A stretch of DNA of 62,133 nucleotides from Ruminococcus bicirculans (ex Wegman et al. 2014) (lineage in GTDB: Bacteria; Bacillota; Clostridia; Christensenellales; DTU072): the NCBI GenBank assembly GCA_963642145.1, contig CAVIFU010000004.1, positions 1 through 62,133 of the forward strand, given 5' to 3'. This document shows, piece by piece, positions 51,756 through 52,703 of this stretch. The notes beneath the pieces were generated by a model. That model was given only the letters and a program-made list of their open reading frames with translations. It was not told where the DNA came from and did no database searches. Both the position numbers and the translations under genes were made by a program. The stretch's first letter is position 1; the number at the start of each line of letters is the position of its first letter.

Positions 51756-52703
51756 ATGGACAAATCCTTTGACATGCTAACGAAAAAAATCGCCGAACGT
51801 ACCGCGCGTTACAACGAACTTGTCGCGCTCACGGAAGCGCCGGAAATAATCGCCGACAACAAGCTTTGGCGGAAGTATGTCTTGGAAAAAACTGCTCTCG
51901 AACGCTCGGTAACGCTGTACGAAGAACTAAAAGTCGCTTGCGACTTGGGCTTAGCGGAAGAAGCCTCGGCTTTGTCCGACGAGCTCGCGATAACGCTTCT
52001 CGACCAAACGGACGCCGACCGCGGAGGCGCGTTGATGGAGCTCGACGCCCGGGACGACGCGTCATGCAGACTTGCAAGCGAAATGCTTACCATGTACTCC
52101 GCCTATTGCAAAAAAGAAAAATTCGATTTTGCCGTAATAGACGAAGAGCGCACCCCTGCCGGCATAAGCCGTTGTTCCGTAAGCGTGGAGGGCGTAAGCG
52201 CCTACCTCAAATTGAGCGGAGAAATCGGTTTGCACCGCTCTACCGACGGCGGCACGGTAACCGTGACGGTACTGCCTACCGCCGAAACGCAAGACTCAAC
52301 GGAGATAGACCCTAAGGACGTGCGCACGGACATATTCCACGCAACGGGCGCCGGCGGACAAAATATAAACAAAGTGGCAACCGCGGTACGCATGACGCAC
52401 CTACCGACGGGAATAGTCGCCGTTTGCCGCGACGAACGCTCGCAGCTACGCAATCGCGAACGTTGCAAACAAGCCCTATCCGCCAAAGTCAACGCCTATT
52501 ACCGTGAAGCGGAGGACGCCAAGCGTCTGAAACTCAAACGCGATTCCGACGCCGCGGCTAAGCTGAAAAGAATACGCCTCTTCGACCGCAAAAACGGCAC
52601 TTTGACCGACGTCCGCACTCTTGCGAAAGTCGATCTCAAAGAAGCCCTCGACGGCAACATATCCAAACTTGTCAACGCCATGATCATACTGAACAAACTA
52701 TGA
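51756..52703 (+). CDS. Class-I release-factor (RF1-like) paralogue: GGQ domain intact, decoding loop missing (315 aa)
   Basis: [40 protein letters not shown] (GGQ codons at 52353-52361). Where RF1 carries the PxT loop, this protein has only [18 protein letters not shown]. Confidence 0.85.
   Translation: [315 protein letters not shown]

Follow-up and report, generated by a model that had tools for sequence, protein, structure and literature searches.

A release factor 1-like protein without stop-codon reading elements heads a conserved, helicase-containing operon: a candidate ribosome-rescue or translation-control module

Adaptor-dependent rescue, in which a full-length class-I release factor acts without a stop codon, is known from the ArfA-RF2 and ArfT-release factor systems. 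The release factors recorded in bacteria by a 2019 survey of their diversity were RF1, RF2, ArfB and PrfH only; linkage to a helicase went unmentioned, and ArfB was reported to be entirely missing from Firmicutes (PMC6514570). PrfH (RFH), which works together with the RNA ligase RtcB2, has abnormal ribosomes as its target (PMC6514570, PMC12829566), and BrfA is a partner whose basic tail senses the empty mRNA channel and which drives a full-length release factor without a stop codon (PMC6881298). Here we describe gene A, found in a stretch of 62,133 nucleotides from Ruminococcus bicirculans (ex Wegman et al. 2014) (assembly GCA_963642145.1, contig CAVIFU010000004.1), the whole of which is referred to below as the window. 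A preliminary description had presented gene A as an RF1-type paralogue that keeps the GGQ catalytic domain and has lost the loop that recognizes stop codons. We report the observed anatomy of its product, protein A, the conservation pattern and monophyly of its family, and its linkage to an operon, a context that the preliminary description had missed. Gene A is the first cistron of a conserved, translationally coupled five-gene operon, and it is very probably a decoding-deficient but catalytically competent RF1 paralogue, not the cell's RF1. Full-text literature searches found no paper that pairs a release factor-like gene with a helicase or describes the gene A family or its operon.

Both Pfam domains of the class-I release factors exceed their gathering thresholds in gene A (PCRF, 4.8e-17, 62.8 bits with a cut-off of 24; RF-1, 1.3e-26, 93.3 bits with a cut-off of 35), which makes it a member of that superfamily. 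RF1 heads the NCBIfam ranking (NF001859, 165.2 bits; TIGR00019, 160.7 bits) and RF2 comes next (TIGR00020, 150.5 bits); the earlier assignment to an RF1-type paralogue with an intact GGQ block stands. These scores are to be set against equivalog cut-offs of 400, 423.25 and 370 bits respectively; the SPF motif of RF2 is also absent, its loop being deleted. The PrfH and ArfB models match over the GGQ domain only, TIGR03072 with 60.1 bits against a cut-off of 166.65 and NF006718 with 36.6 bits, over 36 residues, against 100. Gene A is therefore not an equivalog of RF1, RF2, PrfH or ArfB. RF1 is nevertheless its closest relative, at 35–37% identity, and shares with it the four-domain fold, both Pfam domains and a near-canonical GGQ domain; the closest sequence in the PDB is the RF1 of S. 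mutans (1zbt, 1.6e-35). The ATG at 51756, which we take as the start, occupies the same alignment position as the first Met of most homologues; the program-made list of open reading frames (ORFs) begins at a GTG at 51699, and the resulting 334-aa form is the one called by one source. A promoter scan found no sigma-70-like site 5' of gene A on the + strand, the sole site nearby being a strong divergent one, for aroC.

Aligned with 1zbt, the catalytic block of gene A matches RF1 domain 3 residue for residue, as the preliminary description had read it, and a gap faces VQRVPVTESQGRVHTS. MAFFT alignments with canonical RF1 resolve the shortening of the decoding hairpin into 7 + 4 = 11 residues, the figure first estimated by eye, and the hairpin has lost the Gln before PxT, the PxT tripeptide and the RxHTS strand. 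RF1 reads the first base with the GG(D/E)E tip of its helix alpha5; the MAFFT alignment upholds the earlier observation that the GTGGDEA block has been replaced by ARDDASC. Likewise, the SGDRS block near the C-terminus has degenerated as described, the switch loop having been rewritten. Intact PxT or SPF loops were looked for in the alignments and none was found. The proposed resemblance of the N-terminus to RF1 domain 1 is supported: the domain 1 helices appear in the structural model. A deletion of about 24 residues relative to RF1 (MAFFT; in the region of window positions 51936–51953) had gone unreported. This deletion is limited to the subclade of the window and one further sequence (P0001–P0024 and P0094), and domain 1 is of full length in P0082 and in the distant members from loci L093, L095 and L097.

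The model, built with AlphaFold2 (AF2) from a 59-sequence alignment (pLDDT 87.1, pTM 0.72), has a hairpin of two strands (residues 158–162 and 167–174) with a 4-residue turn between them. Its best Foldseek matches are ribosome-bound release factors, namely RF1 (7m5d_A, E 4.9e-22), RF2 and mtRF1, and superposition on chains spanning domains 2–4 gives TMt values of 0.67–0.68 with a root-mean-square deviation of about 4.5 A. By model and fold search alike, protein A has the four-domain class-I release factor fold with a truncated decoding hairpin. Its architecture differs, as had been pointed out, from that of ArfB and ICT1. These proteins and C12orf65 (mtRF-R) are codon-independent rescue peptidyl-tRNA hydrolases with a homologous GGQ domain, but they consist of that domain standing alone with a basic C-terminal helix, whereas protein A keeps domain 1 and reduced domains 2 and 4 and ends in a non-basic sequence (...AMIILNKL). 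PrfH offers a precedent, being a release factor paralogue with an intact GGQ motif, a recognition domain altered so that it reads no codon, and a partner enzyme in its operon. However, PrfH lacks domain 1 and has about 200–250 aa (200 in the NCBIfam model, 204 and 231 in PDB chains, and a 225–250-aa class in PMC12829566), whereas the gene A family keeps domain 1 and has 315–338 aa; and the partner of PrfH is RtcB, whereas those of gene A are a superfamily 1 (SF1) ATPase, a coiled-coil protein and membrane proteins, and no RtcB gene occurs in any of the loci examined.

A protein database search with gene A returned about 25 clusters of 312–334 aa, 38–60% identical to it and ranked above canonical RF1 (355–361 aa, about 35% identity); where sources name these homologues, it is as 'PCRF domain-containing protein [Clostridia bacterium]'. 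More distant members, 24–31% identical, were recovered through their neighbouring genes. GGQ is present in all 27 family members compared and the PxT loop in none, while in a control set of 79 canonical RF1 proteins, drawn from GTDB genomes across many phyla, 77 match RVPxT. These controls, also used for the tree below, were the canonical genes among the matches listed in a scan of GTDB contigs with GGQ-domain patterns, where L013 was the only locus of the present operon among the matches listed.

Conservation was then scored column by column in 26 family members at positions invariant in RF1. Within the GGQ domain, 92–100% of members keep the RF1 residue (G198, G200, G201, Q202, N205, K206, H215, P217, Q230, N233 and A237), with N205, K206, Q230 and N233 at 100% and H215 at 96%. 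The Gln before the PxT loop is kept in 0%, the residues of R-V-P-x-T-E in 0–4%, and the His, Thr and Ser of RxHTS in 0%, 8% and 19%; at the alpha5 tip the two Gly are kept in 4–8% and the E in 12%, and the G, T, N, R and H invariants of the switch loop and domain 4 in 0–8%, the switch-loop Asn being replaced by a family-specific Asp in 22 of 26 members. Across the family no new conserved motif stands in place of the lost loop, and the replacement turn is short and non-conserved. Selection has thus been maintained on hydrolysis and relaxed on decoding. This pattern effectively refutes the view that gene A is a decaying or neutral duplicate without function. The family does evolve about twice as fast as RF1 (mean pairwise distance 1.50, against 0.79 among RF1 of several phyla), as decay would have it, but the reading frames are intact in all loci examined except L121, which is truncated, the GGQ-domain residues persist among sequences 24–60% identical, and membership of a translationally coupled operon is conserved.

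The conservation pattern also bears on a variant of the codon-independent release favoured below. After splitting of the ribosome, protein A might hydrolyse peptidyl-tRNA on the free 50S subunit, in the manner of mtRF-R/C12orf65 or Vms1 (release of the ribosome-associated quality control type), its domains 1, 2 and 4 serving as a scaffold for partners. Only the GGQ domain is under near-canonical constraint: mean pairwise identity within the family is 0.48 there (RF1, 0.56), compared with 0.27 in domain 2 (RF1, 0.61) and 0.24 in domain 4 (RF1, 0.56), domain 1 standing at 0.31 (RF1, 0.35); and matches of the GGQ domain to C12orf65 and ArfB are detectable. Yet the full four-domain fold is retained in a high-confidence model, domains 1, 2 and 4 have been lost from the GGQ factors known to act on the 50S, and no RqcH/RqcP-type genes are linked to the operon in the loci examined, so that we consider release on the free 50S decidedly unlikely.

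In a neighbour-joining tree of 110 sequences (30 bootstraps, without RF2 outgroup), the 26 gene A family members group together as a single clade, recovered in 29 of the bootstraps; a distinct clade with a conserved deletion is what the preliminary description had suggested testing for. The clade adjoins RF1 of Firmicutes/Clostridia, a placement that is provisional given possible long-branch effects, and gene A most likely arose from a Firmicutes-type RF1 as a fast-evolving paralogue. A canonical counterpart is to be expected beside it. The 33 largest non-overlapping ORFs of the window end in TAA (19), TGA (7) and TAG (7), the last group including a phosphoglucomutase fusion, ABC transporter components, a metallophosphoesterase, an FAD-dependent protein and a helix-turn-helix-cupin regulator, and several Pfam matches of these TAG-ended ORFs reach the end of both profile and protein. 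TAA, TGA and TAG all act as stops in the window, as first claimed. UAG is read by RF1 only, and from TAG stops in genuine genes a canonical RF1 is therefore expected in this genome.

It is very improbable that protein A is itself still a codon-dependent release factor, whether of altered specificity or as the organism's only RF1. Look-ups of two of the best-scoring canonical RF1 proteins did not turn up a canonical prfA in an operon-carrying genome, as this explanation would have it: P0068 maps to GCA_964545115.1 and P0057 to seven unrelated samples, none of them an assembly that carries the operon (GCA_963609265.1, GCA_963657535.1, GCA_963653785.1, GCA_965334395.1 and GCA_910578325.1). However, protein A has lost, by deletion or replacement, all the residues with which RF1 is known to contact the stop codon, the new turn is short and variable in the family, the score is far under the prfA and prfB cut-offs, all three stop codons end genuine genes, and the canonical RF1 closest to the family has PxT and adjoins prmC on metagenomic contigs. 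In two of these (L134 2145–4071 and L140 329–3083) prfA overlaps an upstream PrmC-type methyltransferase gene, a neighbour common for canonical prfA, which in L140 is fused to a DUF1385 domain. The gene A paralogue, in contrast, was never beside a PrmC-type gene in the loci examined, and is linked to the helicase operon instead.

The operon of the window has the order A-B-C-D-E (Table 1), with junctions of ATGA, an 8-nt overlap, TAATG and TAATG. Gene B encodes a helicase-like ATPase (UvrD-helicase, 7.6e-9; Viral_helicase1, 4e-7) composed of a beta-rich N-terminal domain of about 145 aa, a RecA core with motifs I–VI and a helical C-terminal domain of about 180 aa, and its SF1 motifs GxGSGKT, DEVQD, GDALQ, KGLER and YVGVSRAK are invariant in a 54-sequence alignment. 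With its AF2 model (pLDDT 86.7, pTM 0.86), Foldseek ranks PcrA, UvrD and Rep highest (about 1e-11 to 1e-12), ahead of HelD, Ighmbp2, Sen1/Setx and Upf1 (1e-9 to 1e-11); a PDB sequence search matched only the Walker A region of PcrA. Orthologues of B beside A are 40–73% identical (44% over the full length for the L007 copy, 40% for L010), and the family of B has 846 matches at E <= 1e-5, the best 120 of which are all at least 41% identical and nearly all cover at least 96% of the query. The C-terminus of B carries a basic stretch, RRKEKKNG.

Protein C is the best conserved of the partners, with 36–61% identity across the aligned operons and 55% to the L007 copy, at a distance where A is 36–38% identical; its family is small, with 73 representatives (E <= 1e-3) in a search of 1.84 billion proteins. 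A basic C-terminal tail, DRKVKxKK, is conserved in 7 of 7 aligned orthologues. The basic tails of ArfA, ArfB and BrfA probe the mRNA channel, and in this operon it is the separate protein C, not protein A, that ends in a basic tail, a possible lead. The ArfA, BrfA and ArfT systems borrow a canonical RF2 or RF1 and add an adaptor of about 55–70 aa, whereas here a dedicated, decoding-deficient release factor would be joined by a larger candidate adaptor, protein C; homology to ArfA or BrfA was not apparent. Protein D consists of an N-terminal domain of about 150 aa, presumably cytoplasmic, one transmembrane segment (residues ~148–177) and a large Gly/Asn/Ser/Thr-rich C-terminal domain, presumably extracytoplasmic; as a whole it is the least conserved component (27% identity to the L007 orthologue), and its gene follows C in every locus long enough to show its position. 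Gene E was found 3' of D by phmmer in L001, L012 and L095; L093 has a similar 81-aa ORF at that position, assigned by position and hydrophobicity, and E is absent or replaced in some operons (L007). PADLOC, PHROGs and NCBIfam gave nothing specific for B, C, D or E.

Table 1. Positions of the operon genes, the altered elements of gene A and other features in the window
Feature	Position	Strand	Remarks
Gene A, release factor paralogue, most likely RF1-derived, 315 aa	51756..52703	+	ATG 51756 to TGA 52703; Pfam, NCBIfam, AF2, Foldseek
ARDDASC, where RF1 has the AGG(D/E)E(A/S) tip of helix alpha5	52047..52067	+	2-residue deletion in MAFFT alignment
Truncated decoding hairpin, 18 residues	52227..52280	+	Stands where RF1 has GxHRVQRVPxTExxGRxHTSxxTVxVxPE; 11 residues shorter
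GGQ catalytic tripeptide, residues 200–202	52353..52361	+	Within conserved block 52341–52445; 26/26 family members
Rewritten switch loop/domain 4 entry, 16 residues	52551..52598	+	RF1 has GxGDRSERIRTYNxPQ there
Gene B, SF1 helicase-like ATPase, 797 aa	52700..55093	+	Start overlaps stop of A (ATGA)
Gene C, coiled-coil protein, 238 aa	55086..55802	+	8-nt overlap with B; nothing above cut-off in Pfam
Gene D, single-pass membrane protein, 723 aa	55802..57973	+	Overlaps C by 1 nt; no Pfam family
Gene E, 73 aa, two hydrophobic segments	57973..58194	+	Start overlaps stop of D (TAATG)
Catalase gene directly downstream of the operon	58238..59746	+	Also in the diverged locus L095 (13385–14875); probably synteny
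Full-length pyruvate:ferredoxin oxidoreductase	39467..42967	+	POR_N, POR, EKR, PFOR_II, TPP_enzyme_C
Uninterrupted 1135-aa ORF	39506..42913	-	Antisense to nearly all of the preceding gene; no Pfam match; length unusual at ~52% GC
4063-aa ORF, presumably a cell-surface protein	7703..19894	-	InlB B-repeat-like, Listeria-Bacteroides repeat and GLUG motifs

Scanning JGI metagenome contigs with an alignment of C yielded 35 further loci, and all ORFs were then screened with phmmer. In total, gene A lies upstream of B in 19 loci, or in 20 if L013, which duplicates the L007 type, is counted, in the order A-B-C-D wherever the sequence suffices, and the cassette so formed is surrounded by about 13 distinct sets of ordinary chromosomal genes. 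In L001 and L012 the upstream synteny is shared with the window, while in L007/L013, L010, L093, L095 and L097 A-B-C-D is found among flanks quite unlike those of the window (cellulase/GH3; dnaB/dnaI-like genes with Obg and YhbY; RelA and GpsA; rpsB-tsf-pyrH with pur genes), and seven further loci have SMC, malic enzyme, an RsmD-like methyltransferase, MarR, an ABC transporter, MgtC, SecE and others. Translation-related genes lie within a few genes of several cassettes, namely Obg and YhbY (L010 3791–5422), RelA/SpoT (L093 1957–4113), rpsB-tsf-pyrH (L097 1–2197) and an RsmD-like gene (L112 3793–4332), a weak case of guilt by association. The names of samples and a few source names point to uncultured gut Clostridia as the carriers: RGIG isolate labels name ruminant gut sites, and the JGI sample series with cassettes presumably include, to judge from their identifiers, rumen, termite-gut and other gut metagenomes.

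Modularity of this kind invites an explanation in terms of defence or stress. Proteins D and/or B might sense phage, foreign nucleic acid or envelope damage and free the codon-blind protein A, which would release nascent chains prematurely and shut off translation in the manner of abortive infection. The cassette does occur in many chromosomal places, one lineage lacks A and L107 has extra genes; the low conservation of D is as expected of a surface-exposed sensor; and B matches, in part only, models of Gabija GajB (2.5e-16 and weaker) and other defence helicases. However, in PADLOC the matches of B were only of this partial GajB type (best 57 bits, residues 546–612) and no GajA partner is present, A and D had no significant match, and C had weak coiled-coil matches only; the operon does not belong to Gabija or any other defence system catalogued in PADLOC. 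The 13 or so flanking contexts are free of integrase, transposase, restriction-modification and toxin-antitoxin genes, and no second release factor-like gene was found within 7–10 kb of any cassette; C was not found in IMG/VR viral contigs, and B had no match in the phage collection and only partial ones, of 25–30% identity, in the plasmid collection. As the family is also confined to a narrow lineage, we regard such a shut-off system as unlikely.

Membership of a conserved operon makes it likely that the mechanism of protein A is directed by partners and is not that of a solo factor such as ArfB. We therefore favour, at about an even chance, codon-independent peptide release on stalled or aberrant ribosomes, with targets chosen by the operon partners; the precedents of PrfH and of ArfA/BrfA make this the most economical reading. 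In the mechanism that we infer, from ribosome binding and hydrolase activity to the identity of the targets and the role of each partner, protein A would enter the ribosomal A site by means of its retained release factor fold and place its intact GGQ loop in the peptidyl-transferase centre, where peptidyl-tRNA would be hydrolysed. It would be blind to stop codons, since the elements that read them (alpha5 tip, Gln/PxT loop and His/Thr strand) have each undergone deletion or replacement, without any new conserved motif in their stead. In one possible version, ATPase B would engage or clear the mRNA, the basic tail of C would probe the mRNA channel and the membrane proteins would localise the complex. 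Given the reported absence of ArfB from Firmicutes (PMC6514570), a GGQ factor that needs no codon would occupy a vacant niche in these bacteria.

Several observations weigh against partner-directed release of this kind. The two membrane proteins, one of them with a large and poorly conserved C-terminal domain, are not obvious parts of a ribosome-rescue system, and the strong relaxation seen in domains 2 and 4 may indicate that protein A no longer docks in the 30S decoding centre as RF1 does. The fold search with B does not separate UvrD-like (DNA) from Upf1/Sen1-like (RNA) affinity, and B can be assigned to neither nucleic acid because its TM-scores are only 0.26–0.40 to both kinds. The look-ups of the best-scoring canonical RF1, described above, gave no link to operon-carrying genomes. 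Furthermore, three related loci have a PadR-type regulator of about 180–200 aa before B-C-D instead of A (L106 4775–5317, L118 617–1222 and L111 1–390), and the partners can hence occur without an adjacent release factor-like gene. The L107 cassette is expanded, having a 397-aa protein between A and B (3696–4889) and, between B and C (7329–9008), a 559-aa protein whose N-terminus bears a hydrophobic, signal-like segment.

A bolder extension, which we hold to be possible though rather doubtful, is that the operon encodes an unrecognised bacterial machine for translation surveillance, in which a codon-blind release factor and an SF1 motor would act on mRNA or on a stalled or collided ribosome, possibly at the membrane. 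Such a machine would have evolved independently from RF1 and correspond in function, within prokaryotes, to the eRF1/Pelota systems that are coupled to helicases (Upf1, Ski, RQT). The likeness to Upf1 with eRF1/eRF3, and to Ski2/Slh1 with Dom34/Pelota, is one of functional analogy only, a release factor-like A-site protein being genetically coupled to an SF1 or SF2 motor; there is no orthology, the release factor fold here is bacterial, and B matches UvrD/PcrA at least as well as Upf1.

These features of sequence and predicted structure point to a putative new ribosome-rescue or translation-control module, and the gene A family would be a fifth bacterial lineage of release factors, with a new operon partnership. 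To our knowledge BrfA is confined to Bacillus, and with ArfB reportedly missing from Firmicutes gene A is a concrete, testable candidate for the backup of trans-translation in Clostridia. As a natural experiment, the family may further reveal which regions of a release factor are required to enter the A site and activate GGQ without reading a codon. Finally, if B acts on RNA or ribosomes, the operon would provide a bacterial case of a release factor-like protein genetically coupled to a helicase, an arrangement so far known from eukaryotic mRNA surveillance.

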